NCBI GenBank assembly: GCA_034431475.1
Contig: DAOUDE010000108.1
Location: forward strand, 48,882-112,881
Reading direction: 5' to 3'
Length of the DNA: 64,000 nucleotides
From: Thermomicrobiales bacterium
GTDB lineage: Bacteria > Chloroflexota > Chloroflexia > Thermomicrobiales > UBA6265
The stretch's first letter is position 1. The number at the start of each line of letters is the position of its first letter. The notes below the pieces were generated by a model, which was given only the letters and a program-made list of their open reading frames with translations, was not told the origin of the DNA and did not search any database. Of the stretch, positions 25,980 to 50,564 are shown one piece after another. The translations under genes were made by a program, and so were the position numbers.

Positions 25980-28900
25980 CTATGCCGCCAGCTCCGCCCC
26001 CAGCAGTTCCGCCTGCTCGATCACCAGGTCCGTCGCTGCGTCTCGCCCCTCGGGCGGATACCCGTGCACATTCAGCACCCGCCGCACCATCCGCCGCAGG
26101 TGCGCCCGCGCCGTCTCTCGCACCGTCCAGTCGATCGTGGTGTTGTTGCGCACCGTCGCCGCCACATCCCGCGCGATCTCGCGTAGTTGCTCGTCCTGCA
26201 GCAGGTCCTCGGCGCTCACGTGCTCGTTCAGGGCGTCGTAGAAAGCCACCTCGGCGTTCGAGAGCCCCAGCCGCTCCCCGCGCGTCTGCTCCGCTCGCAT
26301 CTCCCGCGCCAGGTCGATCAGCGCCTCGATGATCTGCGCCGTCTCCAGAGCCCGGTTGTGGTATCGCTTGATCGACTCGTCCAGTTTCTCCGAGAACCGC
26401 CGCGCCTGCACCACGCTCGTCCTGCGTTGTGCGCTGATCTCGTCGTTGAGCAGCTTCTTCAGCAGTTCCAGCGCCAGATTCTTCTGCGGCATATCGCGCA
26501 CGTCGGCCAGGAACCCATCCGACAGAATCGAGATATCCGGCTTCTCCAGTCCCGCCGCCGCGAAGATATCGACCACCCCATCCGGCGCAATCGCCTGATC
26601 GACAAGCTGCCGAATGGCGTGGTCCATCTGCTCGTCACTGCGTGAATCGCCACTGCCGGTCGTCTTGGTCAGCGCCGCCTTCACCGTCTGGAAAAACGCA
26701 ATCTCCAGTTTCACCCGCTGCGCCTCGGGCGTCGCGCTCGCCAGCGCAAACGCCTTCGCCAGCGCCACCGCGTGATCCAGAAACCGGTCCTTGACGTGGT
26801 TCCCCGGCTCCCGGTAGTCACGCAGGATCAGGAAATCCTGCGCATCCGTCACAACCTTTGTCCGCTCTGCCGGCGTCCCCGTCAGGAACACGCCGTAGTC
26901 GAAGCCGTGGAACGCCTCCCGGCACAGTTCCAGCTTCTCCAGCATCGCCGCGACCAGCTCGTCGATGCGTAGATCGTCGTTCTCGATCGGCGCGGCTTCG
27001 GTCTTCGCCTCGTGCATGTACAGCCGCAGCGCCGCTTTGAGATTGTTGGCCAGCCCCAGGTAATCCACTACCAACCCGCCCGGCTTGTCGCGGAACACGC
27101 GGTTCACCCGGGCAATAGCTTGCATCAGCCCGTGGCCCTTCATCGGCTTGTCGATGTAGATCGTGTGCAGTGATGGCGCGTCGAACCCGGTCAGCCACAT
27201 GTCGCGCACGATCACCATGCTGAACGGATCGTTCGGGTCCTTGAAGCGGTCCGCCAGCCGCTCCCGCCGCTCCTTGTTCCTGATGTGCGGCTGCCACGCC
27301 AGGTCATCGCTGGCCGAGCCCGTCATGATCACCTTCAGCGCGCCCGTCTCGTCATCTTCGGAGTGCCACTCCGGGTGCAGCGCCACAAGCTGGTTGTAGA
27401 GATCGACGGCGATCCGGCGCGACATGGTCACGATCATGATCTTGCCGGCCAGCCCCTCCTGCCGTTGCGCCGCGTGCTGCACCAGGTCCGCCGCCACCTG
27501 CGCCAGCCGCTTCTCCGTCCCGACCACCGCCTCCAGTTGCGACCAGCGCGAGCCGATCCGGTTCCGCCGCACTTCCTCCTCGGCCTCCGTGATCTCGTCA
27601 AACTCTTCATCCAGGATGCTGCGCTGCGCTTCCAGCAGGTCGAGCTTGATCAGGCGTGACTCGTAGTAGATCGGCACCGTCGCGCCGTCCGCGATGGCGC
27701 GCCCCACGTCGTAGATGTCGATGTAGTCGCCAAACACCACTCGTGTGTCACGGTCCGCCAATTCCAGCGGCGTGCCCGTGAACGCCACGAACGTCGCGTT
27801 CGGCAGCGCGTCCCGCATGTGCTGGGCAAAGCCGCGTACGAACTTGCCCGTTTCCCCCAGCTTCGTGCCGAAGTTGTATTGCGTCCGGTGCGCCTCGTCC
27901 GCCATCACGATGATGTTCCGGCGCTCGCTCAGCAGCGGGTGCTGCTCTTCCTCCTCGGTCGGCAGGAACTTCTGGATCGTCGTGAAGATCACGCCCCCCT
28001 GCCCGGTGTCCAGCAACTCGCGCAGGTGCTGCCGGTTTTCCGCCCGCTCTGGCGTCTGCCGCAGCACCCCGGCCCCCTTGACGAAGGTGCCAAACAACTG
28101 ATCGTCCAGGTCGGTGCGGTCGGTCAGCATCACGATGGTCGGGTTGGCCAGGTGGCCCTCCTGCTGCGCCAGCTTCCCGGCGAAGAACAGCATCGTCAGC
28201 GACTTGCCCGACCCCTGCGTGTGCCACAGCACCCCGCCCTTGCGGTCCCCCTTCGGGCTCGTCGCCCGCCGCGCGGTCACAATCGCCTTGCGCACCGCGT
28301 GGAACTGGTGATACCGCGCAATCTTCTTCGTCAGCCGGCCCTCGTCATCTTCGAACACGATGAACGACCGCACCAGGTCCAGGAAGCGCCCCGGCTCGAA
28401 CACCCCCTTGATCGCCACATTCAGCGTCGCCGCCGGGCTCACCGTCTCCCCGTCAACCGTCTTCCACGCCAGAAAGTGCTCTTCCCCCGCCCCAATCGCC
28501 CCGATCCGCGTGTCATTGCCGTCGGAGATCACCAGCACTTCGTTGTAGTGGAACAATTGCGGAATCTGCTGCTGATAGGTGCGAAGCTGGTTGTAGGCCG
28601 TAGACGTGGTGGCCTTCATGTCGGCCATGTTCTTCAGTTCGATAGTCGCCAGCGGCAGGCCGTTCACGAAAACGACGATATCCGGCCGCCGCTCGATCTT
28701 CCCCGCTGTCACCGTGAACTGGTTGACCGCCACGAAATCGTTGTTGCCCGGCATATCAAAATCGACAATCTGGATCAGTTCGCTCCGCGCCTCGCCGTTG
28801 CGCCACACATCCACCGGCACGCCCCCGGTCAGCAACCGGTGGAACTCGCGGTTCGCGTCCAGCAGCCCCGGCGCACCCACCTGCAGCACCAGCCGGATCG

Positions 28901-29126
28901 CCTCCTCCTGCGCCTCAGCCGATGCCTCCATGTTGATCCGCGCCACCGCGTCGCTCAGCCGTCCCGACAGCACTACCTCGCGGTAGTCAACCCGTTCTGG
29001 GAAAATTCCTCCGGGTGCGATGTCGGGTCCATGAACCACCGTGTATCCCAGTGCCTCCAGCCACGCCAAAGCCGCACCTTCAATGACAGACTCGGAGAGG
29101 CCTTTGTCAGTCATCAAGATCATCAA
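25980..29126 (-). CDS. hsdR: Type I restriction enzyme, R subunit
   Basis: 1048 aa. Helicase motifs [12 protein letters not shown] and MADEAHRTQ, a QxxxY-type N-terminal nuclease region, and a C-terminal helical domain. The alternative ATG at 29114 gives an 8-nt ATGACTGA overlap with the upstream gene. Confidence 0.95.
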
Positions 29127-29808
29127 CCTCCGTGACGGCTACCTCAGCCTTGAAACCCGCTAGAGCGTCACGGTACGCAAATTCGTCTACTCGGTAGAGC
29201 ACTTCGCTGGCCTGATATGAGCCTCCCAGAAGCTCAACAGGCTCGTAGAGCGAATCCACGTACTCGTTGAAGTCGCCGTTTTCCGCCAGATCGATAGGCT
29301 TTTCGGGAACGGGCGCAAAGAAGAACTTATGAGCGGAGTAAAGAAAATGCACGACCGCATCTGCGCTTCTGGCAGCCAATAAGGCGTGAGCCGCTTCCAG
29401 GCTGGACGCCGAAGGAGTCTTGCCGTGCGAGCAGACTCCGAACGTATGCCGCAAGTGAGAGATAGCGCCGATCACACCTTCAAAGCCAGCTAGAAGCTCT
29501 TCCATTTTCTTGCATGTAACCTCATCGTCACTCATGGAGCCTGGGACGAGTGAGGTTGCGGTGTATGTCTCCTTGAGGAGATCGTTGAAACGTGAAGGAA
29601 TCGGACTTCGCCCTCGCTCCTCCAGAATTGTCTTGCAAGTCGATTCGACCAGCGCTCGTGAGAGGTCAAAGACCAAGCTTGGAGATGTTTGCATCCCCGA
29701 TTCAATCGCATTGACTTGTTCATAAATGGGCAGCGCGCCTCCGCTGAGTTCAATAACCTCACGAGCGCCATGCATGGTGAAAAGAGAGTCGGGGGTCGAG
29801 ATCGCCAT
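29107..29808 (-). CDS. Abi_C-like (abortive-infection C-terminal domain) protein embedded in the R-M operon
   Basis: 233 aa. [18 protein letters not shown] ... [15 protein letters not shown] ... [17 protein letters not shown] follows the pattern I recall for Pfam Abi_C (E..lK.iL ... lRN..g.aHG ... hA.....a). GGAGCG Shine-Dalgarno. The segment is AT-richer than its flanks. Confidence 0.5.
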
Positions 29809-29824
29809 GTTTCACGCTCCAGTC

Positions 29825-31121
<1,297 letters not shown>

Positions 31122-31129
<8 letters not shown>

Positions 31130-32735
31130 CCGTCATTGCCAGCAAGATGTTTCGAATCTCTCCCTCCAACCGCGCCGACTCTGCGAACTGCTCCTCCAGT
31201 GTCGCCGTCAATCGCGCCAGCTTCTCCCCGAATGGCTCATCGTCCTCTTTCGCCGCCGCCGTCCCCACATACCGCCCCGGCGTCAGCACGAACCCGTGTC
31301 CGGCAATCTCTGCCGTCGTCGCCGCCCGGCAGAATCCCAGCACATCCGCGTAACTATGCTCGCTCCCATCCCCGCGCCAGGCGTGATACGTCCCCGCAAT
31401 CCGCGCAATGTCGCCATCGCTCAGGTTGCGCAGCGTGCGGGTCTCCATGTAGCCCAGCGCCCGCGCGTCAATGAACAACGTCTCGCCCCGCCGGTCCCGC
31501 AGCGGCGCGCCGTCCAGCCCGTGCCCGTTCCCCTTGTTCCGCGCCAGGAACCACAGGCTCACCGGAATCTGCGTCGAGTAGAACAACTGCCCCGGCATCG
31601 CCACGATGCAGTCCACCAGGTCCGCCTCGATGATCTTCTTCCGGATCTCGCCCTCACCACCCGTGTTGCTCGACAGCGAGCCATTCGCCAGCACGAACCC
31701 CGCTACCCCGTTCGGCGCCAGGTGACTGATGATGTGCTGCACCCACGCGTAGTTCGCGTTCCCCACCGGCGGCGCGCCAAACTGCCACCGCCAGTCATCC
31801 CGCAGCCGCTCCCCGCCCCAGTCGCTGATGTTGAACGGCGGGTTCGCTAGGATGTAGTCCGCCTTCAAGTCCCGGTGCAGGTCGTTGTGGAACGTGTCCG
31901 CGCTCTGCCGCCCCAGGTTCGCGTCGATCCCGCGCAGCGCCAGGTTCATCTTCGCCAGGTTCCACGTCGTCCGGTTGCTCTCCTGGCCAAAGATCGAGAT
32001 ATCCCCCGGCTGCCCCCGCCGCGCCGGGTCACCAATCCGGTGGCTGTGCTCCTCGACGAACCTTTCCGACTGCACGAACATCCCGCCGCTACCGCAGCAC
32101 GGGTCATACACCCGCCCCCGGTACGGCGCCAGCATCTCCACCAGCACCCGCACCACCGAGGACGGCGTGTAGAACTCCCCGCCCTTCTTCCCCTCGGCGC
32201 TCGCGAACTGGCCCAGGAAATACTCGTAAACCCGCCCCAGCAGGTCCAGCTTCCGGTGCCGCTCTTCATTCAGCCCGATGTTGCTGACCTCGTCCACCAG
32301 GCGGCCAAGCTGGATCGCCGGCAACGACGGCCGGCTGTACCCCTTCGGCAACACCTCGCGCAGGCTGTCGTTCTCCCGCTCGATGGCGTCCATCGCCCCG
32401 TCGATGATCACCCCGATCGTGGGCTGCCGCGCCGCCCCCCTGATCAGCTCCCACCGCGCCTCGGGCGGCACCCAGAACACCCCCTCGGCCAGGTACTCGT
32501 CGCGGTCCTCCGGGTCCGCGCCCGTGCCCGCCGCCTGCTCCGCCACCAGCTCGTCATACCGCACATCGAACGCATCGGAGATGTACTTCAGGAAAATCAG
32601 CCCCAGCACCACGTGCTTGTACTCGGCCGCGTCAATGTGCCCACGCAGCGCATCCGCCATCGTCCAGAAGTGCTGCTCAAGCCTGGGCGCTGCACCACCC
32701 TTTGCCGGGGAACCGCCGCGTTCCTCGCGCACCAT
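31122..32735 (-). CDS. hsdM: Type I R-M N6-adenine DNA methyltransferase subunit
   Basis: 537 aa. HsdM N-terminal domain ([32 protein letters not shown]), SAM motif [12 protein letters not shown], catalytic LANPPFN. Confidence 0.95.
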
Positions 32736-33790: not shown

Positions 33791-34846
33791 CTATCTCACC
33801 CCCACCCACCGGTCCGCCCCGTCCGCCGCGCCAATCGAGACCATGTTCGTCGCGCTCGCCGGGCGCACCGGCGGAAAATCCCCCGGCTCCCAGCCCGGCC
33901 GCCGGCTCAGGCTCAGGTCCACGCCCACCGTATCCCCCGCCACCGGGCGCACCCGCTGCATCTCATCCCGCGTCAGTTGCGCCCACACCCGCTCGCCGTT
34001 CACGTGCAGCGTCAGCTCGATGCGATTATCGAAGCCCAGCGTAATCACGCGGTCCACCGTCGCGGCGATGCACCCCTCCTGCTCCGGCGTGCAGATCACC
34101 ACCTCGTGCGGGCGAATGTAGGCGTCGCCGATGCGGTTCACCTTGCCCACGAAGCTCATCACGAACTCCGTCGCCGGGTGCTCGTAGAGCTCATGCGGCG
34201 CGCCCACCTGCTCGATGCGGCCCCGGTTCATCACCACGATGCGGGAGGCCACTTCCATCGCCTCCTCCTGGTCGTGCGTCACCAGCACCGTCGTCACGTG
34301 CACGTTCTCGTGCAGCCGCCGCAGCCAGTCGCGCAGCTCCTCGCGCACCCGCGCGTCCAGCGCCCCGAACGGCTCATCCAGCAGCAGCACCCGCGGCTCC
34401 ACCGCCAGCGCCCGCGCCAGCGCCATGCGCTGCCGCTGCCCACCCGAGAGCTGCGCCGGGTAACGCTCGGCGTAGCCATCGAGCTGCACCAGGTGCAGCA
34501 GCTCATCCACCCGTCGCCGGATCTCCACCTTCGGCGTCTTGCGGATACGCAGGCCAAACCCCACGTTGTCGCGCACCGTCATGTGCTTGAACGCCGCGTA
34601 GTGCTGGAACACGAACCCCACGTTGCGGCGCTGCGGCGGCAGCGATGTCGCCGCCACCCCGTCGATGAAGACCTCGCCCGAATCCGGCTGATCCAGCCCC
34701 GCGATGGCGCGCAGCAGCGTGCTCTTGCCGGAGCCACTCGGCCCCAGCAGGGCCGTCAGCGAGCCATCCGGCACCTCCACCGACACGTCATCGAGCGCGC
34801 GGAAGTCACCGTAGCTCTTGCGCAGATTGTGAACCGTAATGCCCAT
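33791..34846 (-). CDS. cysA: Sulfate/thiosulfate ABC transporter ATP-binding protein
   Basis: ATG at 34846 ([15 protein letters not shown]). Walker [10 protein letters not shown], signature LSGGQRQR, Walker B LLLDEP, and a C-terminal TOBE-like domain. Confidence 0.9.
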
Positions 34847-34889
34847 CAGTCGCTCCCGTTTCTCGTGTCTCGATCGTCTCCCCATCGGC

Positions 34890-35045
34890 TCCCCTCTCCC
34901 GATGTGCGGGAGAGGGGCTGGGGGTGAGGGCTTACTCCTCCGGCTCCCCTCTCCCGCGCATCAGGAGCGGGGCTTGGAGCGAACGTTTCTCGTCCGTCTC
35001 CCCTCTCCCTGCGCACAGGGAGAGGGGCTGGGGGTGAGGGTTTTT
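34890..35045. repeat. Three REP family B hairpins inside the cysW-cysA intergenic space
   Basis: ctcccctctcccgatgtgcgggagaggggctgggggtgaggg; ctcccctctcccgcgcatcaggagcgggg; ctcccctctccctgcgcacagggagaggggctgggggtgaggg. Confidence 0.8.
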
Positions 35046-35857
35046 CAGTGACTCCCACGCGGCTTCAGCCGCTGCATCAGGAACAGTGTGCCCAGCGCCA
35101 GCAGCGCCAGCACCAGCGACGCCGTGTACGCGCCCACCATGTCGAAGTTCAGGAACCGCTCTTCCACATGAATCGTCAGCGTCTCGGTGCGGCCCGAGAG
35201 CTTGCCGGAGACAATCGCCACCGCGCCGTACTCCCCCAGCGCCCGCGCCGTCGTCAGCACCACCCCGAACGCCACGCCCGTGCGGATCGCCGGCAGCGTG
35301 ATCATCCAGAAGATCTGCCAGTCCGTCGCGCCCAGCGTGCGCGCTGCCTGCTCCTGCTCGGTGCCGATCTCGCGCAGCACCGGGATCACCTCCCGCGCCA
35401 CGAAGGGGATACACACAAAGATCGTCGCCAGCACCATCCCCGGCGTCGCGAAGATGACGCGGATGCCGTGATCGGCCAGCCAACCGCCGAACTCACCGCG
35501 CCGCCCGTACACGATCACCAGCGCCAGGCCCACCACCACCGGCGAAACACCAAGTGGGAGATCGAGCAGCGCCGTCAGCAGCGCCTTGCCCTTGAACTCG
35601 CGCCGCACCACCGCCAACGCGAAGAGGATGCCGAAGATGGTGTTCAGCGGCACCGCGATCAAGGCAATGATCAGCGTCAGCTTCAGGGCGTGGATGAACG
35701 CCGGGCGCGTGAGGGCCTCCAGCACCGGGCCCAGGCCGCTCGCGAAGGTCGTGACCAGCATCACGGCCACCGGCGCAATCAGCAACAGCCCCAGGTAGAG
35801 CACGGCCACGCCGCGCAGCGCGAGCTTACTGGTCATGCTTGCGGCTCCGGCGCTCAA
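35045..35857 (-). CDS. cysW: Sulfate ABC transporter permease
   Basis: 270 aa. Multi-TM with a BPD-type EAA loop (EQEQAARTLGATDWQIFWMITLP). Its position in the sbp-cysTWA order supports the call. Confidence 0.85.
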   Translation of the reverse strand: MSAGAASMTSKLALRGVAVLYLGLLLIAPVAVMLVTTFASGLGPVLEALTRPAFIHALKLTLIIALIAVPLNTIFGILFALAVVRREFKGKALLTALLDLPLGVSPVVVGLALVIVYGRRGEFGGWLADHGIRVIFATPGMVLATIFVCIPFVAREVIPVLREIGTEQEQAARTLGATDWQIFWMITLPAIRTGVAFGVVLTTARALGEYGAVAIVSGKLSGRTETLTIHVEERFLNFDMVGAYTASLVLALLALGTLFLMQRLKPRGSH

Positions 35858-36683
35858 ACAGGGAGATGGTCAGCAAGACACACAGGGAGATGGCCAGCAA
35901 CACCACCGCAATCGCGGACGCAGCCGTGATGTTGTCGTTCTCGACCTGGCTGTAGATGCGCACCGCCGCCACTTCCGTCTCGAAGGGGATGTTGCCGGAA
36001 ATCAGCACCACCGAGCCGAACTCGCCGATGGCGCGGGCAAATCCCAGGCCAATCCCCGCCAGGATGGCCGGCGTCAGGTTCGGCAGCACAATCAGGCGGA
36101 ACGTGGTCCAGCCGCTGGCGCCCAGCGCCTTGGCGGCCTGCTCCATCTCCTTGTCCATCTCGACCAGCACCGGCTGCACCGCCCGCACCACGAAGGGGAG
36201 CGTCACGAACAGCAACGCCAGGATCACGGCCGCCACGGTGTACGCGATGTTCACGCCGATGGGGCTGCGCACGCCGTACATGGCGATCAGCGTCAGCCCC
36301 GCCACAATCGTCGGCAGCGCAAAGGGCAGATCGATCAGCGCCGACATGAAATCCTTGCCGGGGAACGCGTCCCGCACCAGGACCCACGCGATGAGCGTGC
36401 CGAAGACCGCGTTGATCAGGGAAACCAGCAGCGAGGCGCCCAGGCTGAGCCGCAGCGCCGCCAGTGCCTGCGGCGTGGTCACCGACGCCCAGAAGCCATC
36501 CCACCCCTCCGAGGTCGAGCGGAAGACTACCGCCGCCAGCGGAATGAGCACAATCACGCTCAGGTAGGCGGTGACCACGCCGACGGTCAGCGGCGTGCCC
36601 ACCGAAAGCCCGCGCGCGGCGGGCGTGGTCGTCGCTGGGGGCGCGGCCAGAGCCGCACCCACCGGGTAACTGGTTGCGCTCAC
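35826..36683 (-). CDS. cysT: Sulfate ABC transporter permease
   Basis: 285 aa. Multi-TM with an EAA loop (MEQAAKALGASGWTTFRLIVLP). Overlaps cysW by 32 nt and sbp by 4 nt. Confidence 0.85.
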   Translation of the reverse strand: MSATSYPVGAALAAPPATTTPAARGLSVGTPLTVGVVTAYLSVIVLIPLAAVVFRSTSEGWDGFWASVTTPQALAALRLSLGASLLVSLINAVFGTLIAWVLVRDAFPGKDFMSALIDLPFALPTIVAGLTLIAMYGVRSPIGVNIAYTVAAVILALLFVTLPFVVRAVQPVLVEMDKEMEQAAKALGASGWTTFRLIVLPNLTPAILAGIGLGFARAIGEFGSVVLISGNIPFETEVAAVRIYSQVENDNITAASAIAVVLLAISLCVLLTISLFERRSRKHDQ

Positions 36684-37702
36684 TGCTGCTGCACCACCGC
36701 CACGATGCCGTTGTCCGGATCGAAGAACTTCGTGGTGACCTCATCCCAACCGCCAAGCTCATCGATGGTGAACAGCTTCTCCGGTGTCGGGTAGGTGTCG
36801 GTGAACTCCGCCTGGATCTCCGGCAGCAGCGAGCGGTAGCCCTTCTCGGCGAAGATGCGCTGGGCATCCGGCGTGCGCAGGTAGTTGATGAACTCCTGCG
36901 CCTTCTCCGGGTTGGCCGACTCCGTCACCACCGCCACCGGGTTCTCGATCAGCAGCGTCTCGGCCGGAATCACGTACTCGAACGTCTCACCCTTCTGCTG
37001 CGCCGTGATCGACTCGTTCTCATAGGCCAGCAGCACGTCACCCTTGCCGCCGGCAAAGGTGGCCAGCGCCTCCCGCGCGCTCTTGTCCTGCACCGGCACG
37101 TGGGTGAAGAGCTGCCGCAGGTACTCCTGCGCCTCTTCTTCCGTCTTGCCCTGCTGCAACTGCGCGCCCCAGGCCGCCATGATGTTCCAGCGTGCGCCGC
37201 CAGAGGTCAGCGCGTTCGGCGTGATGACTTCGACGCCTTCCTTCAGCAAGTCGTCCCAGGTCTGGATCCCCTTCGGGTTCCCCTCGCGCACCGCGAAGAC
37301 CACCACCGAGTCGGTCACCATGCCCTTGAACTCGTCGGCGTTCCAGTCCTCGGCCACCAGGCCCGGCTCGATCAGGCGGGTGATATCCGGCGCCAGCGAG
37401 AGCGCCACGATATCGGCCGGCAGACCACTTTCCACGGAACGGCTCTGCTCGGTGGACGCCGCGAACGAGGTCTCGAACTGGACGTTCGCGCCCTCCGGGG
37501 TCGCCTGGAAGAGCGGGATGATCTCCTCGTAGGCCTCACGCGGGGTGGAGTAGGCGACGAGGGTCAGGGTGACCGCGTCCTGCGCCGCCACCGGCGCCCA
37601 CCCGAAGCGCAGCGCCGGGGCCGCCATAGCTGCAGCCGCAGCGCCCATCAGCGCGGAGCGGCGGGTGAGGGTCCTGGCGAGCAGATCAGCACGTGCGTGC
37701 AT
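36680..37702 (-). CDS. sbp: Sulfate/thiosulfate-binding periplasmic protein
   Basis: ORF from TTG 37726; the ATG at 37702 is preferred (AAAGGA Shine-Dalgarno). Tat-like leader TRRSALMGAAAAAMAAP. Family-typical body (TLVAYSTPREAYEEIIP...). Confidence 0.85.
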   Translation of the reverse strand: MHARADLLARTLTRRSALMGAAAAAMAAPALRFGWAPVAAQDAVTLTLVAYSTPREAYEEIIPLFQATPEGANVQFETSFAASTEQSRSVESGLPADIVALSLAPDITRLIEPGLVAEDWNADEFKGMVTDSVVVFAVREGNPKGIQTWDDLLKEGVEVITPNALTSGGARWNIMAAWGAQLQQGKTEEEAQEYLRQLFTHVPVQDKSAREALATFAGGKGDVLLAYENESITAQQKGETFEYVIPAETLLIENPVAVVTESANPEKAQEFINYLRTPDAQRIFAEKGYRSLLPEIQAEFTDTYPTPEKLFTIDELGGWDEVTTKFFDPDNGIVAVVQQQ

Positions 37703-37744
37703 CGCGAAACGTCCTTTCAGCAACAAAGCCTATTTTGTCTGTAA

Positions 37745-37765
37745 TGTCCACTCGATTAGTGGACA
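37745..37765. promoter_or_regulatory. Candidate operator TGTCCACT-N5-AGTGGACA at the sbp-cysTWA promoter
   Basis: Perfect 8-bp arms (core GTCCAC-N7-GTGGAC), immediately downstream of the putative -10. The same palindrome occurs at 50603-50634 and 51003-51025. Confidence 0.5.
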
Positions 37766-37771
37766 ATGCGC

Positions 37772-37800
37772 ACGATACACGACGTCTCGCGCGTTGACAA
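37772..37800 (-). promoter_or_regulatory. Putative proximal promoter (P1) of sbp-cysTWA
   Basis: The minus strand reads TTGTCA (37800-37795), 17 nt, then TATCGT (37777-37772). Confidence 0.4.
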
Positions 37801-37863
37801 GCCCCTTCGCGAATGCATGTGTCCGGAGAATGATGCGTACGTACGCGGGGAGGCAGACGCAAC

Positions 37864-37889
37864 GAAGCCCGGCCTGGTGGCCGGGCTTC
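37864..37889 (-). terminator. Strong hairpin in the sbp upstream spacer (possible terminator/attenuator of the P2 transcript)
   Basis: gaagcccggcc-tggt-ggccgggcttc is a perfect 11-bp stem. On the minus strand it is followed by GTTGCGT, a weak U tract. Confidence 0.4.
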
Positions 37890-38018
37890 TGGGACGGGGT
37901 TCGGGAGAGTGCAGACTCCCGGTTGGGGTTTGGGCGCTCTGGCTGGGGAGGGGCTCCAGCCGAGAGCTGAATGGGTATCTCATCGGTCAGGATTGTCGGA
38001 CCGCTCCTGACTGGACAA

Positions 38019-38047
38019 ACTCTACAAGATTGGTGGACTTTTGTCAA
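38019..38047 (-). promoter_or_regulatory. Putative distal promoter (P2) upstream of sbp
   Basis: The minus strand reads TTGACA (38047-38042), 17 nt, then TAGAGT (38024-38019). The spacer contains a GTCCAC half-site (GTCCAC-N7-GTAGAG). Confidence 0.4.
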
Positions 38048-38355: not shown

Positions 38356-38409
38356 GGGTATGGCCCGACAGCGGAGCCGGTATGGCCCGACAGCGGAGCC
38401 GGTATGGCC
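38356..38409. repeat. 22-bp tandem duplication (about 2.4 copies)
   Basis: ggtatggcccgacagcggagcc repeated twice, plus a partial ggtatggcc, about 50 nt upstream of the methyltransferase start. Confidence 0.8.
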
Positions 38410-38455: not shown

Positions 38456-38992
38456 GTGAACCACGCTGATCACGTGCGGCTGATTGCGCCCGGTGTGCCG
38501 GCCCATGCTGGCGGACGCTGGGCCGAGTTCGGCGCGGGGACCGGCCCATTCACGCTGGCGCTCCGCGATGTCGCTGGCCCGGAGGTCGAGATTACGGCCA
38601 TCGACCGCGACGCCGGGGATTTGCGTGAGCTACGGCGCGCCATGGAGCGTGCCTTTCCCGGCACGCGGCTACACACCTGTGCCGCCGATTTCACGCGCCC
38701 GTTGGAACTGCCCCCACTGGATGGCATCCTCGCCGCCAACTCGCTGCACTACGTGCGCGACCAGGTTGCACTTCTCCGCCGCTGGCGCAGCTTCCTTGCC
38801 CCCGGCGGCCGCCTGATCGTGGTGGAGTACGACACAGATCGCGGCAACCATTGGGTACCCTTCGCCCTCTCGTTCGAGACGTTCACCCAACTCGCGCAGG
38901 AAGCCGGATTCACCGCGCCAGAGCGCATCGGCACGCAGCCGTCACGCTTTCTGGGCGCGTTCTTCTCAGGGCTGGCGTACACAGCGGACTGA
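38456..38992 (+). CDS. Class I SAM-dependent methyltransferase
   Basis: 178 aa, GTG start. Motif I AEFGAGTGPFTLAL; later ILAANSLHYV and LAPGGRLIVVEY. Confidence 0.8.
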   Translation: MNHADHVRLIAPGVPAHAGGRWAEFGAGTGPFTLALRDVAGPEVEITAIDRDAGDLRELRRAMERAFPGTRLHTCAADFTRPLELPPLDGILAANSLHYVRDQVALLRRWRSFLAPGGRLIVVEYDTDRGNHWVPFALSFETFTQLAQEAGFTAPERIGTQPSRFLGAFFSGLAYTAD

Positions 38993-41794: not shown

Positions 41795-41819
41795 GGCGCA
41801 AGTCGCGCCTCTCAATCCC
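41787..41819. terminator. Hairpin spanning both stop codons of convergent genes (bidirectional terminator candidate)
   Basis: gggattgaggcgc-aagt-cgcgcctctcaatccc, a 13-15 bp stem with one bulge. Confidence 0.45.
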
Positions 41820-42648
41820 TCAGGTGCTCCCGCGTCGCGAACGCCGTGCGCGCCACAGCGTGCTCGGCGCTGTCCCGGTTCAGCAGGACGACGCCGACGG
41901 AGACGGCGCTGAGGATGACGATGCTGAGCACGGTCAGCACGGCCAGGCGCGGGAAGTCCGAATTGGCGAGGGCCAGTAGGTCGAGGCTGTAGAGCGCGAC
42001 GGTCTCGAAGCGCGCGCCCACCAGGATCTGCGCCAGCGCGAACTCACCGAAGCTGAGCGCGAACACCAGCATGCCGCCCGCCGCGATCCCCGCGCCAATC
42101 TGCGGCACGATCAGCAGCCAGAGGATCTGCCAGCTATTGGCCCCGCTCATGCGCCCGGCTTCGTCCAGCTCCACCACACCGATGCTGGCCATCGCGCCAT
42201 CGATTGCCCAGTAGAGGAAGGGAAAGGCAACCGCTGCCTGCGCGAAGAGCAGCAGCCACGGCGAGCCAAGCGCCTTCGGCAGGTACAGGCCGTACAGCTT
42301 GAGAATGCCGAACGCGATTACGATGAAGGGCAGCACGAAGGGAATGGCTGCTGCCAGTTCGACGAGCGGCCGGATGCGCGGGTTGCGCACGCGCTGCCAG
42401 AACACGACCGGGATGACCAGCACCAGATCGAGCAGCAGCACCCCGGCCGCCAGGGCAACGGTGCGCCCCAGGGCGCGCAGCAGGCGCGAATCCACCAGGC
42501 CAGCCCGCCAGTGCTCCAGCGTGTAGCCATCCGGCAAGGCATGGGCGGTCCACGACGTCGCAATGGAGTACAGGACGATCGCCAGGAGCGGCAGCAACAG
42601 GTAGAGCGCCACGACCGTGAAGATGCCGGCGCGCGTCAACCGGGTCAT
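41812..42648 (-). CDS. ABC transporter permease (PotC-like)
   Basis: ATG at 42648 (MTRLTRAGIFTVVALYLLLP), 278 aa, multi-TM, EAA loop (LDEAGRMSGANSWQILWLLIVP). The upstream 241 aa of the tracked ORF merely overlaps the neighbouring gene. Confidence 0.85.
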   Translation of the reverse strand: MTRLTRAGIFTVVALYLLLPLLAIVLYSIATSWTAHALPDGYTLEHWRAGLVDSRLLRALGRTVALAAGVLLLDLVLVIPVVFWQRVRNPRIRPLVELAAAIPFVLPFIVIAFGILKLYGLYLPKALGSPWLLLFAQAAVAFPFLYWAIDGAMASIGVVELDEAGRMSGANSWQILWLLIVPQIGAGIAAGGMLVFALSFGEFALAQILVGARFETVALYSLDLLALANSDFPRLAVLTVLSIVILSAVSVGVVLLNRDSAEHAVARTAFATREHLRD

Positions 42649-43574
42649 GCCAGCCACCTCACCGCGCGGCGCATCGTCAGCCGGTAGGCCAGCAGCGAGA
42701 GCGTGGCGATGACCAGCAGCAGCGTCGCCATCACGGCGGCCCGCCCCTGGCTCCCCGCCGCCGAGTTCAGCGCGATGCCGATCTGGAGCGTCATCAGGCG
42801 AAGCTGGTTGGTGGCGGCGTTCCCGGCCAGCGCGTAAGCCAGGCCGTAGATGCCGATCGACCAGGTGAAGATGAGCAGCCACCCCGCCGCCAGGAAGGGC
42901 GCCAGTACGGGCAGCCCAATGAAGCGCGCCGTCTCGGCCTTCGTCGCGCCGAGCGTGGACGCGGCCTCCAGCGTATCGGCCTCCACCACGCGCATCGCGG
43001 GCAGGGTCAGCAGCACGAAGAGCGGCACATTCGTGTAGAGGTACACGAGCAGCAACCCCAGGAACGACGCCGGCGTGGGCGGGACAAAGCCCAGGCCCGT
43101 CTGCTGCAGCACCAGCGTGACCATGCCGTAGGTGCCGAGCGAGGCCATGAACCCGAAAGCCAACCCGATGCCGCCAAAGTTCGCGCCGACGTTCAGGAGC
43201 GATAGCCACGCGGTCCGCGTCACGAGCGGCGACCGCGACAGGAACCAGGCCAACGGCGCGCCGATCAGCAGGGAGAGCGTGGCGCAGGCGACGCCGAGCG
43301 ACAGGCTGGTGACAATCGCCACCCGGTCGCCGCGCCGCTGGAATGTTTCCGCCCAGAACTCCAGCGTCCACTGCCCGGCCTCGCCGCGCACGCTCTGCAC
43401 CACCACCATGATGGTTGGCAGCACCAGCAGGGCCAGCGCCAGCAGCAGCAAGGGCAGGGCCGGCGCCCAGTGCACGACGGCCTGGGTCAGCCGTGCCTGG
43501 TGCACGCCGGTGGGGCGTGCGGCCGCACGCCCCACCGCCACCGCCTGGCCCTCGGCCAGGCTGGTGCTAGCCAC
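42645..43574 (-). CDS. ABC transporter permease (PotB-like)
   Basis: ORF from 43604; the GTG at 43574 overlaps the binding-protein stop by 8 nt. Multi-TM with EAA loop (LEAASTLGATKAETARFIGLP). Confidence 0.8.
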   Translation of the reverse strand: MASTSLAEGQAVAVGRAAARPTGVHQARLTQAVVHWAPALPLLLLALALLVLPTIMVVVQSVRGEAGQWTLEFWAETFQRRGDRVAIVTSLSLGVACATLSLLIGAPLAWFLSRSPLVTRTAWLSLLNVGANFGGIGLAFGFMASLGTYGMVTLVLQQTGLGFVPPTPASFLGLLLVYLYTNVPLFVLLTLPAMRVVEADTLEAASTLGATKAETARFIGLPVLAPFLAAGWLLIFTWSIGIYGLAYALAGNAATNQLRLMTLQIGIALNSAAGSQGRAAVMATLLLVIATLSLLAYRLTMRRAVRWLA

Positions 43575-44682
43575 CCAGCACCTCGACATCCCACGCTTCG
43601 GCAATGATGTCGGCGTCGATCTTCGACCAGTCTTCGGCCTGCACGACGCCCGCGTAGGCCGCGTCCGGCAGCCACTTGGTCCGTGCGGCTTCCGGCAGTT
43701 CCAGGTCGCCCAGCACGTAGCGGATCGGGCGTGCGCCGAACTCGGCGAACGCCGTTTGCGCCTCGTCCGACAGCACGAAGTCGAGCAGCAGCTTGGCCAG
43801 GTCAGCCTTCTCGGTGTTGTACCGGTTGATCATCAGGGCCGAGGGCGCGTAGAGCGAGACGTCGGGGATGATGACCTCGGCGTTGAGGCCTTTCTCCGTC
43901 ACCGCATCGGCGATGGCGATGGCGTTGAAGTCGTATTTGATGAGGACCGGTACCTCGCCCTTCTCGAACTCCTGCGCGTTCCCCTCCTTGGGGCCAAACT
44001 GCGGCAGGAGCTTCTGGGCGAACTCAATGCCCGGGGCCAGGTCGTGCTCGTTGCCGCCGTGCGCATAGGCCCAGGCCAGGAACGCCGTGGCGCCCTCGCC
44101 GGCCGTGCGCGGGTCACGCATGCCGATCTTGCCCACGAACTCCTCACCCAGCAGATCATCCCAGGTCTCGGGAACGGTCGAGATAACGTCCTTGTTGATC
44201 AGGATCGACGGCACGCCCGTGAAGGTCGCAACCCAGCCACCCTCTGCGCCTTTCAGGCCGGCAGGCAGGTCCGCCGCACTCGCCGGGGTGTAGGGCGGCA
44301 CCACGCCGACGCGCTCTGCAATCGGCCCGTAGATCAGCCCGATGTCGGAGCTGACCGCGACCGGGTTGCCCTTTTCGGCGTCGTATTTGGTGATCTCCTC
44401 CATGGAGGTCATGTCGGTGTCGGTGCGGTTGACCGGGAAGCCGTACTTCTCACTGAATGCCTTGAGGACGCCGCCGTAGTTGGCCCAGTCGTCAGGCATG
44501 CCGTAGGTCTGGAAGTCCACCGCCTGCGCGGCCGCCTTCTCGACATCCGGCTCGCCAGCCCAGGCGTCATCCTGCGCTCCGACCCGCGCCAGGTATGCCG
44601 GTGATCCCGGCAGCGCCAGGCCGAAACCAAGCGCGCCGGCCAGCTTCAACATGGTGCGACGATGCAGTGATGGAACGGACAT
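43567..44682 (-). CDS. ABC transporter substrate-binding protein (PotD/iron(III)-type family 1)
   Basis: ATG at 44682 after GAGGAGG. Tat-like leader HRRTMLKLAGALGFGLALP. 371 aa. Confidence 0.8.
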   Translation of the reverse strand: MSVPSLHRRTMLKLAGALGFGLALPGSPAYLARVGAQDDAWAGEPDVEKAAAQAVDFQTYGMPDDWANYGGVLKAFSEKYGFPVNRTDTDMTSMEEITKYDAEKGNPVAVSSDIGLIYGPIAERVGVVPPYTPASAADLPAGLKGAEGGWVATFTGVPSILINKDVISTVPETWDDLLGEEFVGKIGMRDPRTAGEGATAFLAWAYAHGGNEHDLAPGIEFAQKLLPQFGPKEGNAQEFEKGEVPVLIKYDFNAIAIADAVTEKGLNAEVIIPDVSLYAPSALMINRYNTEKADLAKLLLDFVLSDEAQTAFAEFGARPIRYVLGDLELPEAARTKWLPDAAYAGVVQAEDWSKIDADIIAEAWDVEVLGG

Positions 44683-44779
44683 GGTAATTCCTCCTCGTAT
44701 CTTGCTCGTTTCCGGGCACACTCCACGCCGGCCCGGTGGAACATCCACCGCGCGTGAGAGACCATGGGTTGAGGAACGA

Positions 44780-45592
44780 TCAGGCGGTGCGCGCCAACCT
44801 CGACCGGGTTGGCGCTGCGACCGTCTCGGGCGCATTCAGCGCATGAACGTATGGGTTCTCGGTGGGCCGCTGGCCCAGGACGGTATTCAGCACGGTCTTC
44901 TTGATTTCGGTGAAGCCGCGGCTGGTGTGATCGCGCGGGCGAGGCAGATCAACGCGCAGGTCGAGCGCCACCGTGCCGCCTGCCAGCACGACGATGCGGT
45001 CCGCCAGCGCCACGGCCTCTTCCACATCGTGCGTCACCAGCACGGCGGTGAACCCATGCTCCTGCCAGACGCGCTCGATGAGGCTCTGCATATCCAGCCG
45101 GGTCAGCGCGTCGAGCGCGCCCAGCGGCTCATCGAGCAGCAGCAGGCGCGGGCGGGAGGCCAGAGCTCGCGCCAGGGCCACGCGCTGGCGCTGCCCGCCG
45201 GAGAGGATGCTCGGCCAGTCCTGCGCCCGCTCCGCCAGGCCAACCTCGTCCAGCGCGGCCCGCGCTTCCGGGCGGCGGTCACTGGAGAGTCCCAGCGAGA
45301 CGTTATCCAGCACCCGCCGCCAGGGCAGCAGGCGGGCATCCTGGAACATCAGGCGCACCAGCGGGCTGCCGGGGCGCGGCTCGTGCCGCTCCAGCAGCAC
45401 GGAACCTGCCGTTGGCTCCTCCAGTCCGGCCAGCAGGCGCAGCAGCGTGCTCTTGCCGCAGCCGCTCTGCCCGACGATGGCAACGAACTCCCCGCTGCCA
45501 AAGGTGAGGTCAACGCCCCGCAGCACCGGCCGCGCGCCGAAAGACTTGTGGAGGCTATTCGCCTCGATCTCGACTCCGCTGGGAATGGGCAT
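44780..45592 (-). CDS. ssuB: Aliphatic sulfonate ABC transporter ATP-binding protein
   Basis: Walker [30 protein letters not shown], signature [15 protein letters not shown], Walker B LLLDEP. Last gene of the ssu string. Confidence 0.85.
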
Positions 45593-45637
45593 ATTGGTCA
45601 CCTTCTCGTGTCACTTGGCGAGTTGGGCCAGGCAACT

Positions 45638-45792
45638 GCCCTCACCCCAACCCCGCTCCCGCGCATCGGGAGCGGGGCTCCGTTTGTTCGGAGCCGACGC
45701 CAGACTCGGCGTAACTGATCGGGTCTCCAGATGGCGACACGCCGTTCGTCTCGCCGCTCCCGCGCACCGGTTGAGGGGCTGGGGGCGAGGGC
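45638..45792. repeat. REP family B copies in the ssuC-ssuB intergenic space
   Basis: gccctcaccccaaccccgctcccgcgcatcgggagcggggctccg (45638-45682) and cgccgctcccgcgcaccggttgaggggctgggggcgagggc (45752-45792). Confidence 0.7.
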
Positions 45793-45847
45793 CCGCCGGG
45801 GCGGAATCGGCGGTAGGAAGGCGACGCCAGTGCAATCGCCGTAGATG

Positions 45848-46657
45848 TCAGGCGCGCGCATAAGTCGGGTGCCAGGCAAGCAGTTGCCGTTCGAGGCCGC
45901 GCGCCGCCACGTCGGCCAGCTTGCCGAGCAGCGCGTACAGCAGGATGCCGAGGACCAGGACATCGGTCTGCAGGAACTCGCGGGCGTTCATCGTCACGTA
46001 GCCGATGCCAGAGGTGGCGGCAATCGTCTCCGCCACGATCAGCGTTAGCCACATGATGCCGAGCGCGTAGCGCAGCCCCACCAGGATCGAGGGCAGCGCG
46101 CCCGGCAGGATCACCTGCCGGAACATCTGCCAGGTTGTGAGGCCGTAGGTCGTGCTCATCTCGATCAGGCCAGCGTCCACGCTGCGCACGCCGTGGTAGG
46201 TGTTGATGTAGATCGGGAACGCCACGCCGATGGCGACCAGGAAGATGCGCGCCGTTTCCCCGATGCCGAACCAGAGGATGACCAACGGAATCAGCGCCAG
46301 GTGCGGAATGTTGCGCCCCAACTGCACGCTGCTGTCGAGCAGCCGCGCCCCCCACGGGAAGAAGCCGTTGATGAGCCCGAGCAGAAAGCCGACGCCGCCG
46401 CCGATCAGCAGACCGACAAAGGCCCGGCGCGCGCTGACCCCCACGTCCTGCAGCAGGTTGCCTTCGGTCAGGAGCTTCCAGCCAGCCTCCGCGACGGAGA
46501 GCGGCGCTGGCAACACCCGCTCGGCGATGATGCCGTGCATGGAGAGAAACTGCCAGATCACAAGGATCAGCGCGGGCACCAGCCAGGGCACAACGGAGCG
46601 CGCAACACGCGTCGAGACCTGGTTGGCGGTGAGAGAGGGAAGGGCAGTGATTGCCAT
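45848..46657 (-). CDS. ssuC: Aliphatic sulfonate ABC transporter permease
   Basis: 269 aa, multi-TM, NitT/TauT-type permease pattern (LIEMSTTYGLTTWQMFRQVILPGALP). Confidence 0.85.
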   Translation of the reverse strand: MAITALPSLTANQVSTRVARSVVPWLVPALILVIWQFLSMHGIIAERVLPAPLSVAEAGWKLLTEGNLLQDVGVSARRAFVGLLIGGGVGFLLGLINGFFPWGARLLDSSVQLGRNIPHLALIPLVILWFGIGETARIFLVAIGVAFPIYINTYHGVRSVDAGLIEMSTTYGLTTWQMFRQVILPGALPSILVGLRYALGIMWLTLIVAETIAATSGIGYVTMNAREFLQTDVLVLGILLYALLGKLADVAARGLERQLLAWHPTYARA

Positions 46658-46669
46658 CGATGCCGTCTC

Positions 46670-47848
46670 CTAGCCTGCGGCGGCCGCCCGGCGCATTTCC
46701 AGCCCCGGCACCACGGTGTTCGCCACGATCTCGCCGCCGGTCATGCCGAACGGCCCGGCTGCGGAGCTATATGACGCAGCGCGGTCAGGCTGTGACTGCA
46801 AGTTCAGCTTTGGGAAAACCAGCTCGGCGAAGCGGTAGGCCTCTTCCAGGTGCGGGTAGCCACTGAAGATGAAGGTGTCGATCCCGGCGGCCTCGTACTC
46901 GTGCATGCGCTCGGCAACGGTGTCCGCATCTCCAACCAGCGCCGTCCCGGCGCCACCGCGCACCAGCCCCACGCCCGCCCACAGGTTCGGGCTAATCTCC
47001 AGGTGCTCCCGGGAACCCCGGTGCAGCGTGGCCATCCGGCGCTGCCCATGCGAGTCCATGCGGGCGAAGACCGCCTGAGCCCTGGCGATGGTGGCCTCGT
47101 CAACGCGGCTGATCAGGTCGTCGGCATCGCGCCACGCGTCTTCGTCCGTCTCCCGCACGATCACATGCAGGCGAATGCCAAAGCGCAGCGTGCGCCCTTC
47201 GGCTGCGGCCAACTCACGGACTGCGGCGATCTTCTCCGCCACCTGCGCGGGCGGCTCGCCCCAGGTCAGGTACATGTCAACGTGCTTCGCCGCCACCTGC
47301 TGCGCCGCCGGCGACGAGCCACCGAAGTAGAGCGGCGGGTGCGGCTTCTGCAGCCCCGGGATCAGCACCTTGCCACCCCGCACATCGAGGTGCTTGCCCT
47401 GGAAATCAACCGTCTCGCCGGCGAGCTCCTTGCGCCAGATAGTCAGGAACTCGTCGGTCATTTCGTAGCGTTCATCATGCGAGACATGCAGGCCGTCGCC
47501 GGCCAGCTCCACCGGGTCTCCGCCCGTCACGACGTTGATCAGGAGGCGGCCATCGCTGAGGCGGTCGAAGGTCGCGGCCATGCGTGCGGCCAGTGATGGC
47601 GACATCAGCCCTGGCCGGATGGCAACCAGGAACTTCAGCCGCTTCGTGAGCGGGATCATGCTGCTGGCGACCAGCCAGGCATCCTCACAGCTCGCGCCGG
47701 TCGGCAGGAGCACGCCCTCGTAGCCAAGGTCGTCCACCGCCTGCGCGATCTGCCGCATGTAGGCATGGCTGGTGGCCCGCCCGGCCTCGGATGTGCCCAG
47801 GTAGCGGCCGTCGCCGTGGGTGGGGATGAACCAGAACACGTGGGTCAT
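46670..47848 (-). CDS. ssuD: FMNH2-dependent alkanesulfonate monooxygenase
   Basis: ATG at 47848 ([18 protein letters not shown]...), a luciferase-like monooxygenase, 392 aa. The 65-aa upstream extension of the tracked ORF is R/S-rich junk. Confidence 0.9.
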
Positions 47849-47978
47849 GTACTCGCTCCTGTGCTGATGGTGCTGCGGTGACCGTGCGTCGCCCCTCTGC
47901 CTGTCATCGTGCGCCCGCCTTTCCCGGTCATCCTGAGGAACAAAGGATGACGATGCGGTGGTGACGCCGCCGCGAGCG

Positions 47979-48944: not shown

Positions 48945-48990
48945 GTAAACCTCCGGTACTGTGTTTCGACGACGGATGAGTGTGGGGATC

Positions 48991-49998: not shown

Positions 49999-50564
49999 AC
50001 CGCAATCTCCAGGCCCTGCGCCGCCTGGTCGCGGCGATGCAGCACGTCCTGCTCCAGCGCATCGAGCGCGCGGAGCAACCGCGAATCAGCGAGGTCGTTC
50101 AGGTAGCGCAACTGGTTGCCTTCGCGGGCAAAGTCACCATTCAGCAGGCAGACACCCGGCAGGAACGTGGCGGCGCCAAGCGCCGAGAGCACCGGCTTCA
50201 GCGCGTAATCCAGCACCAGGCAGTGCGCCAGCGATCCGGCGGTGGATATGGGAAGAACGCCCTTGCCGGTGAGCGCCCCGGCCGGGAGCAGATCGAGGAA
50301 CGCCTTCAGCACCCCGGAATACGCGGCCTTGTAGACAGGTGTGGCCACGATAACGACGTGCGCCTGTTCCACCAGGGCGGTGGCATGGCGCACCGCGGGA
50401 TCATCGAACTGTGCCCAGAGAAGCGCCGCAGGGGGAAAGTCCCGCAGGTTGACGGCCGCGGTGGTCAGGCCACGGCGCTCCAGGACTTCGCGGGCGGCGT
50501 CCAGGGCTGCCGCGCACCGGGAAGGGGCGGCGGGACTACCCGCGATGGTGACGACATCGAGCAT
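49995..50564 (-). CDS. ssuE: NAD(P)H-dependent FMN reductase
   Basis: 189 aa. VVTIAGSPAAPSR...VVIVATPVYKAAYSGVLKAFLDLLP. 4-nt overlap with ssuA. GGAGG Shine-Dalgarno. Confidence 0.85.
   Translation of the reverse strand: MLDVVTIAGSPAAPSRCAAALDAAREVLERRGLTTAAVNLRDFPPAALLWAQFDDPAVRHATALVEQAHVVIVATPVYKAAYSGVLKAFLDLLPAGALTGKGVLPISTAGSLAHCLVLDYALKPVLSALGAATFLPGVCLLNGDFAREGNQLRYLNDLADSRLLRALDALEQDVLHRRDQAAQGLEIAV

Follow-up and report, generated by a model that had tools for sequence, protein, structure and literature searches.

In a 64,000-nucleotide stretch of Thermomicrobiales DNA (the window), the palindrome GTCCAC-N7-GTGGAC recurs at the promoters of the sulfate- and sulfonate-uptake operons, and we consider it probable that it forms the operator core of a dimeric or higher-order repressor of a sulfur regulon in Thermomicrobiales and Sphaerobacterales. 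The regulon would take in four promoters of the window: those of sbp-cysTWA, of ssuE-ssuADCB with a further ATP-binding cassette (ABC) system, and of two candidate small RNA (sRNA) genes, sRNA-A and sRNA-B, one placed just upstream of each operon. The G+C content of the window is ~66%, and we assign its host to the Thermomicrobiales, within the Chloroflexota, because relatives of its Sbp protein at 70-94% identity carry the Thermomicrobiales label. The uptake operons and the main operator copies are given below, with bit scores from a symmetric matrix built from 27 sites, which was used to score the window and related loci.

33791-37702, minus strand: sbp-cysT-cysW-cysA sulfate ABC transporter operon (Pfam; NCBIfam TIGR00971 and TIGR00968 above cutoff)
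36680-37702, minus strand: sbp, with its ATG at 37702
41812-50564, minus strand: ssuE-ssuA-ssuA2-ssuD-ssuC-ssuB operon plus three more ABC-transporter genes (Pfam; NCBIfam)
37745-37765, unstranded: sbp proximal operator, TGTCCACT-cgatt-AGTGGACA (perfect 8-bp arms; 38 bits)
37735-37741, unstranded: auxiliary box TTGTCTG (gene strand: CAGACAA), at 10 bp from the sbp palindrome half-site on the side away from the promoter
51005-51023, unstranded: sRNA-B operator, exact GTCCAC-N7-GTGGAC (41 bits, the top site of the window)
50605-50632, unstranded: ssu proximal operator with three half-sites (33 bits)

The identities of Sbp, CysA, SsuE, SsuA, SsuD and an SsuB-like protein are backed by NCBIfam; the models for the sulfate-binding protein, CysA-type ATPase, SsuE, SsuA family and alkanesulfonate monooxygenase all scored above their curated cutoffs. 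The three genes after ssuB encode a binding protein and two permeases.

The palindrome of the sbp proximal operator, whose core is 37746-37764, lies 43-62 nt upstream of the sbp ATG, in agreement with an initial annotation of this DNA that had described a palindrome with perfect 8-bp arms about 45-60 nt before the start codon. The same annotation had reported a recurrence upstream of ssu, which we found as an exact copy at 51005-51023 and a one-mismatch copy at 50605-50623. It had also reported a degenerate version in the distal sbp promoter; this copy (CTCTAC-N7-GTGGAC) exists, at 38020-38038 rather than 38025-38041, and belongs to the sRNA-A promoter. The half-sites of the ssu proximal operator are GTCCAC (50605-50610), ATGGAC (50618-50623) and GTGGAC (50627-50632), and the sRNA-B operator has an extra box, GAGGACA on the gene strand, at 50994-51000.

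Exact GTCCAC-N7-GTGGAC occurs twice in the 64 kb against 0.01 expected, a count reached by none of 100 dinucleotide shuffles, and the pattern GTCYAC-N7-GTRGAC with at most one mismatch occurs four times against 0.42 expected, which no shuffle reached. When up to two mismatches to the strict pattern were allowed, the window count (8 versus 4.2 expected) was not significant. The four additional two-mismatch matches (19854, 44515, 55633 and 61962) have GC-rich spacers, at least the one at 19854 lies in coding sequence, and all four were treated as chance. The bare hexamer GTCCAC was not enriched in the window (47 versus 42 expected). With the matrix, the four sites score 28-41 bits and the next best window position 6 bits, in line with the initial annotation, which had noticed the motif nowhere else in the 64 kb. 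All four copies are confined to the upstream regions of sbp-cysTWA and ssuE-ssuADCB, and the occurrence of the palindrome in the window is real and non-random.

A genome-collection scan with Sbp yielded 19 loci, to which more were added through exact-protein look-ups; the site survey covers the window and ~350 kb of non-redundant related loci, which carry L numbers here. By phylogenetic footprinting, about 15 relatives (63-93% Sbp identity) have the palindrome before sbp, ssuE or both, at the matching place in the promoter. It was found upstream of sbp in L011-L018, L026, L027, L220, L222, L225 and L226, and upstream of ssuE in L026, L031 and L225. In all loci of at least 63% identity labelled Thermomicrobiales, Sphaerobacterales or Chloroflexia, it stands 60-220 nt before the matched sbp segment, except in L019 and L020, where no related palindrome was found upstream of sbp. 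The site is absent from the Actinomycetota sbp loci L021-L025 and from 21.5 kb of the window's own genome (L223). Every site of at least 20 bits in the related loci precedes sbp, ssuE or an sRNA unit, and the arms co-vary; this comparison of orthologues supports the view, put forward in the initial annotation, that sulfate and sulfonate uptake share one operator.

The consensus in relatives is wwTGTCYAC-N7-GTRGACAww. Its arms vary symmetrically, from GTCCAC/GTGGAC to GTCTAC/GTAGAC, with both forms present in one genome (L031) and with C/T and G/A variants in both arms. Alignment of the promoters revealed conserved -35 (TTGYCA) and -10 (TGTATYGT) blocks, the palindrome, and an extra TGTCC box inside the -10 region, 10 bp upstream of the palindrome. 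In most sbp promoters, one or two (G)GACA boxes follow the palindrome, phased at +10 and +20. L220 carries a fully symmetric four-box version, TGTCCTCATTGTCCAC-N7-GTGGACAATGAGGACA, and the three-box layout of the ssu proximal operator recurs in L026. The operator is, as judged from these alignments, larger than the palindrome and includes the phased extra boxes. Non-random occurrence, positional conservation at orthologous promoters and dyad symmetry, the general attributes of an operator, are all found here.

The survey also turned up a 1.6-kb contig binned as 'Candidatus Saccharibacteria' (L010, CAZBGZ010000064.1) that shares the operator and an sbp of 100% identity with the window, and is almost certainly a Thermomicrobiales fragment placed in the wrong bin. 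In L031 (7873-9822), a low-molecular-weight phosphatase (arsenate-reductase-like) and a chromate transporter are encoded between an sRNA-A unit and sbp, and in L225 (14034-14861) a TauE-family (sulfite exporter) gene follows cysA. These neighbours may be further regulon members, because chromate is a sulfate analogue.

Each operator was then located relative to its promoter.

37772-37800, minus strand: sbp proximal promoter TTGTCA-17-TATCGT (promoter scan, 9/12 matches; 0.2 expected in the region)
38019-38047, minus strand: sRNA-A promoter TTGACA-17-TAGAGT (promoter scan, 10/12 matches)
51031-51059, minus strand: sRNA-B promoter TTGACA-17-TATGAT (promoter scan, 11/12 matches)
50631-50659, minus strand: putative ssu proximal promoter TTGACT-17-TAATGT (read from the sequence, 8/12; its -10 overlaps an operator half-site)

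Three of the four promoters were called by the scan, which places TTGTCA-17-TATCGT from 37800 to 37772, just before the palindrome, as first described. Every operator overlaps core promoter elements, lying in the -35/-10 spacer or spanning -10 to about +20 of sigma-70-like promoters. The sbp palindrome starts 7 nt after the -10, with the predicted transcription start at the operator edge, and the sRNA-B operator begins 8 nt after its -10. At sRNA-A, the degenerate operator fills the spacer between -35 and -10 and overlaps the -10; the degeneracy of this copy is explained by its right arm doubling as the -10 (TAGAGT or TAGACT). The layout of this promoter, TTGACAAAwGTCCAY..rTAGAsT, is shared with eight relatives.

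The two distal promoters open a repeated arrangement. Each operon is preceded by a unit made up of a strong operator-bearing promoter, ~160 nt and a GC-rich hairpin, and this unit recurs in relatives.

37857-38018, minus strand: sRNA-A, candidate small RNA of ~160 nt (covariance-model match, 148.6 bits)
50840-51025, minus strand: sRNA-B, second candidate small RNA (match to the sRNA-A model, 21.8 bits, E ~1e-3)

The predicted fold of sRNA-A starts with a 5' hairpin; a second hairpin leaves CCCCUCCCC unpaired in its loop (~37945-37953), a third pairs GGGAG with CUCCC, and a C-rich single strand leads to the closing GC hairpin (AGAAGCCCGGCC-acca-GGCCGGGCTTC, 37864-37889). For sRNA-B the predicted fold follows this design, with the operator forming a 5' hairpin, CAUCCCCUCCCC and CCCUUCCCC in the loops of further hairpins, a C-rich tail and, at 50843-50874, a GC hairpin. 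When nine diverged copies were folded independently by minimum free energy, they gave one plan, with 5', CCCUCCC-loop and GGGAG/CUCCC hairpins, the C-rich strand and the closing hairpin in order. The CCCUCCC loop lies 63-68 nt from the 5' end with an unpaired probability of 0.84-1.0 in all nine, and the stems that close it are of unrelated sequence (GGCUGG/CCAGCC, CCAGGCGGCUG/CGGCCGCCUGG and CGGAUUUCCAG/CUGGAAAUCC). Pairing holds in 91% of cells of the covariance-model alignment, with compensatory changes at 11 of 22 pairs; none of 500 shuffles reached this, and slid controls gave 35-56%. Because 1-nt indels separate close copies, the units hold no coding frame. With its own promoter, a conserved structure with compensatory changes and no coding frame, sRNA-A has the attributes of a structured RNA. 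Rfam 15 gave no match at the E-value threshold in 30000-56000 and so none at either unit. A covariance-model match at L030 461-572 was rejected as a terminator only, with no operator, as were weaker matches consisting of terminator hairpins.

Homologues of sRNA-B are found in L031 and in L029, there without an ssu operon behind, and L026 is homologous to the window from precisely the sRNA-A -35 onwards. These comparisons suggest that the distal copies (38020-38038 and 51005-51023) drive independent, conserved small RNAs with putative termination and are not second operon promoters, as the distal sites had been taken to be at first; the candidate genes they belong to have stand-alone homologues.

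Three further observations concern the surroundings of the units. Past the end of sRNA-B and before the ssu proximal promoter stands a perfect 14+14 nt palindrome, GGGAAGACGGCCTG/CAGGCCGTCTTCCC (50786-50813), possibly another terminator-like hairpin, in this case bidirectional. A 22-nt unit, GGTATGGCCCGACAGCGGAGCC, is perfectly duplicated in tandem at 38357-38400, between the sRNA-A promoter and a divergent methyltransferase gene. The product of that gene, a small S-adenosylmethionine-dependent methyltransferase (178-191 aa), is encoded beside the sRNA-A/sbp region in six genomes (window 38456-38992, L029, L030, L031, L220 and L222), and in the window its gene is divergent from this region.

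Several findings weigh against a repressor that acts on both the operons and the sRNAs. The ssu proximal promoter is weak by consensus (8/12) and was missed by the promoter scan. The matrix scan found no operator-like site at either of the two sulfatase genes of the window (Pfam Sulfatase and SGSH_C; 20129-24180, 14 kb from sbp); these genes seem to lie outside the regulon, which would then not equal all sulfur genes. At the ~20 loci surveyed, no adjacent regulator gene was found, nor was an operator copy seen before a transcription-factor gene. The half-site resembles the DnaA box, TTGTCCAC plus one base matching TTGTCCACA at 8 of 9 positions. Finally, the closing GC hairpin of sRNA-A covaries, yet neither it nor that of sRNA-B has a U-tract, and the scan called no terminator at either unit, so that read-through into the operons is possible.

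The lack of U-tracts and of called terminators would suit an arrangement in which the distal units are long regulated leaders, each an upstream promoter plus attenuator whose read-through adds to operon transcription, and both window units indeed lie directly upstream of their operons on the same strand. We regard this alternative as rather unlikely, given the copies that have no downstream gene on their own strand. The one at L030 8257 stands alone, with opposite-strand genes on both sides and a convergent methyltransferase gene ahead; at L029 5083, the ssu-type copy is kept after LysE, the ssu operon is absent and the next gene (a peptidase) is convergent. The unit at L222 4148 lies 5.7 kb from sbp, and each operon keeps its own operator-bearing promoter.

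We read the operator as a repressor site because every copy overlaps a near-consensus promoter with optimal spacing, and its position argues for a repressor rather than an activator. The initial annotation had allowed for either under sulfur starvation; the shared sulfur-regulon operator holds up, and the activator side is disfavoured since all sites overlap the core promoter. An activator like CysB, Cbl or SsuR, or a regulator with dual action, that turns on the promoters under sulfur starvation would fit the control of ssu and sbp in Proteobacteria and Corynebacterium, where the response to sulfur starvation is largely mediated by activators. It is improbable here: the sites cover the spacer, -10 or start of near-consensus promoters with 17-bp spacers, a spacing unfit for a MerR-type spacer-binding activator, and none falls in the -40 to -80 region typical of class I/II activators.

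Whether the sites could instead be head-to-head pairs or arrays of DnaA boxes, occupied by DnaA as a transcription factor, was weighed against the features of that box. Its general consensus is TTWTNCACA, with C6, A7, C8 and A9 fixed, and TTGTCCACA is the high-GC form. Besides the 8/9 match, the operators here are likewise box arrays in both orientations, and a metagenome scan with the pattern WTGTCCAC-N7-GTGGACAW gave at least 120 matches, those listed being mostly TTGTCCACA-N5-TGTGGACAA pairs with more TGTGGAT/ATCCACA boxes beside them. The matches listed consisted chiefly of DnaA-box pairs, eukaryotic repeats and chance matches; only L145 and perhaps L219 among them were true sbp sites, and they revealed no regulator. 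Database searches with GTCCAC-N7-GTGGAC therefore call for caution, as they mostly yield DnaA-box pairs among the matches listed. Geometry like that of DnaA pairs also occurs in 41-bp tandem arrays on phage contigs. DnaA is nevertheless unlikely as the binder, because the ninth base, A in the DnaA box, is a pyrimidine (T or C) at nearly all sites and because the C-to-T change of the GTCTAC/GTAGAC variant alters the fixed position 6, with both variants present in L031. All sites found lie at sbp, ssu or the co-regulated RNAs across ~15 genomes, and we know of no link between DnaA and sulfur uptake, so we give this reading very little weight. The phage contigs (IMG/VR sample 3300045988; L094 5265-5451), ~70-130 kb long, carry up to five tandem copies of a 41-bp unit containing TTGTCCACGTTTTTTGTGGACAA, which could be iterons or DnaA-box-pair arrays and are unrelated to the sulfur operator.

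Action of the palindrome as RNA, as a 5'-terminal stabiliser or protein-binding hairpin on the sbp, ssu and sRNA-B transcripts, is similarly hard to credit. In its favour, three of the four sites have the palindrome starting near +1, where it would enter the transcript, and C-to-T and G-to-A arm changes keep base pairing; at every sRNA-A promoter, however, the site occupies the -35/-10 spacer, ahead of the start, and is left out of the transcript, and the mixed sites GTCCAC...GTAGAC of L017 and L220 would give a C-A mismatch in RNA. The flanking boxes, which are phased by 10 bp, face either way and extend into the -10, point to recognition of DNA. The commonness of the hexamer alone might suggest a non-regulatory motif, either a dispersed repeat or a product of chance. 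That reading has next to no chance of being right, since the exact palindromes far exceed expectation, are confined to two promoter regions and stay in place in relatives with as little as 63% Sbp identity, while the intergenic DNA around them can no longer be aligned.

The search for the repressor itself covered Pfam-annotated ~20-kb flanks of sbp in ten relatives and of three window genes, as well as the upstream open reading frames of L017, L018 and L027. No transcription factor recurs in these flanks, which extends to relatives the earlier remark that no regulator gene is adjacent in the window; HTH_17 and PIN pairs found there are toxin-antitoxin modules and were set aside. The transcription factors of the window are a MarR protein (5040-5528, beside a ketoacyl synthase gene), a LuxR-STAND protein (11418-14000) and a MocR protein (62282-63781). 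The last was at first attractive, as TauR boxes contain GTCCAG and the MocR upstream region shares GTCCATTTGTTG with the ssu operator. It was rejected: the protein scores 430.9 bits with NCBIfam PdxR (cutoff 320), its gene faces a flavin adenine dinucleotide (FAD) oxidase gene, the upstream region carries different repeats, CCATTTGT, and no operator, and the matrix finds no match in L223. Two conserved small hypothetical proteins beside LysE (51848-52186 and 52427-52762) show no DNA-binding signature. The loci surveyed showed no Rrf2 or TetR gene nearby, neither they nor the window contain an IclR gene, and a plasmid-database protein search for a Thermomicrobium megaplasmid gave only Proteobacteria matches below 44% identity. 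Upstream of the MocR/PdxR-like gene stand repeated boxes, gCCATTTGTgATGGAC ... GTCCATTTGTtGTCCTGG (window 63820-63860; L223 9930-9975), which are probably that regulator's own site; the resemblance of GTCCATTTGTTG to part of the ssu operator (GTCCATTTTGTTG) is taken as coincidence.

Among known sulfur regulators, CymR (Rrf2 family; Bacillus and Staphylococcus) and McbR (TetR family; Corynebacterium) are master repressors that follow the same logic, one protein acting on promoter-overlapping palindromes of the genes for sulfate, sulfonate and cysteine uptake and released under sulfur limitation, but their operator sequences do not match the window motif. McbR recognises TAGAC-N6-GTCTA, and CymR a 27-bp AT-rich site without GTCCAC. 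An McbR operator was rejected because the pattern here, GTCYAC-N7-GTRGAC, has its arms in the opposite orientation and a different spacing. Neither protein is, to our knowledge, known to control small RNAs. CysB and Cbl are LysR-type proteins with activator sites centred upstream of -35 and T-N11-A dyads. Sites of this kind were rejected on position, as all four copies overlap the spacer, -10 or start, and on a T-to-A distance of 15 bp rather than 11, as expected from the first impression that the motif is unlike CysB/Cbl sites.

A literature search on the hexamers and sulfur produced NdgR as the sole relevant lead. In Streptomyces coelicolor, this IclR-family protein binds sulfate-assimilation and cysteine genes at a motif defined by chromatin immunoprecipitation sequencing, for example GTCCACACCGTGGAC, and the NdgR/LtbR operator is a 15-bp palindrome, [GT]T[CT]CAC-N3-[TC]GGAC (PMC4340878). 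Some IclR operators have an extra external direct half-site repeat (PMC8222616). The hexamers of NdgR/LtbR, which are actinobacterial proteins, are the same as those of the window motif, whose extra half-site repeats recall these IclR operators; the spacing differs, N3 (15 bp) versus N7 (19 bp) here, and the core NdgR regulon is branched-chain amino acid biosynthesis. An NdgR/LtbR operator was rejected because the 7-nt spacer is found in all of at least 27 sites, with no N3 version seen. An IclR-like protein may serve as a lead and no more, given the equal hexamers and the external direct repeats that IclR sites can carry. TauR, which controls taurine, a sulfonate, recognises the box CTGGACYTAA; MocR motifs are built from two to four boxes, direct and inverted, and the cognate gene is usually nearby, divergent and autoregulated through the same boxes (PMC5320631). 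The TauR box contains GTCCAG on its other strand, but TauR acts as an activator through direct repeats that lie upstream of promoters, and a MocR/TauR site was rejected along with the window MocR, for its PdxR score and operator-free upstream region.

For the candidate RNAs, the closest working analogy is with RNAs of the RsaE/RoxS/IsrR/FsrA type, IsrR, like FsrA a Fur-repressed RNA of iron sparing, being closest. In the C-rich small RNAs of Firmicutes (RsaE/RoxS and the Rsa family), several unpaired C-rich motifs pair with G-rich ribosome-binding sites (PMC2790875, PMC8216469), and IsrR is produced once a nutrient-sensing repressor leaves its promoter (PMC11257911). sRNA-A and sRNA-B similarly present an unpaired CCCUCCC and further C-rich single strands; they differ in having no sequence or Rfam match, in their Chloroflexota host and in a presumed signal of sulfur rather than iron or redox. 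CCCUCCC is complementary to the GGAGG ribosome-binding site (anti-Shine-Dalgarno). A search for GGGAGGG-type targets within the window found only generic ribosome-binding sites.

On these grounds we propose the following circuit. The operator would have the consensus wwTGTCYAC-N7-GTRGACAww, often with TGTCC/GGACA boxes phased by ~10 bp, up to five over ~55 bp, and a bound repressor would cover either the -35/-10 spacer or the stretch from -10 to +20 and so exclude RNA polymerase. Release might occur when sulfur runs short, through loss of a sulfur-metabolite co-repressor or through an O-acetylserine-type inducer. The co-regulated RNAs, which would display CCCUCCC in loops and single strands, would most likely pair with target ribosome-binding sites during sulfur limitation, because CCCUCCC is complementary to GGAGG. 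That a repressor bound to a multi-box operator jointly controls sulfate and sulfonate uptake together with one to three C-rich sRNAs per genome, which silence the translation of dispensable sulfur-demanding proteins, is a tentative proposal, possible rather than probable.

Elsewhere in the window, cysA is immediately followed downstream by a type I restriction-modification system (HsdR, HsdS and HsdM) that includes an Abi_C-domain gene (25980-32735), and a cyanophycin synthetase gene is found at 15003-17657. A near-perfect hairpin of ~100 nt between cysW and cysA (34886-34983) drew the sole Rfam report in the region, below-threshold matches to animal microRNA precursor models that are surely spurious as microRNAs; it could be an intra-operon processing or termination structure.

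All support is computational, and it makes a new sulfur regulon with candidate sulfur-limitation sRNAs plausible. In the literature searched, sulfur regulation in Chloroflexota is uncharted, and the known sulfur masters (CysB/Cbl, CymR and McbR/SsuR/CysR) are unrelated proteins from three other phyla. The delimited, conserved operator offers a direct handle for fishing out the regulator, which would be feasible in cultured Sphaerobacter or Thermomicrobium if they carry the site. Of greater interest are the C-rich co-regulated RNAs. That small RNAs spare a nutrient is well documented for iron, and we know of no widely accepted sulfur equivalent; a conserved family under operator control would make the idea of sulfur sparing testable. 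If the proposal is true, these RNAs would be the sulfur counterpart of iron sparing by Fur-RyhB, FsrA and IsrR, and among the first riboregulators defined in Chloroflexota.

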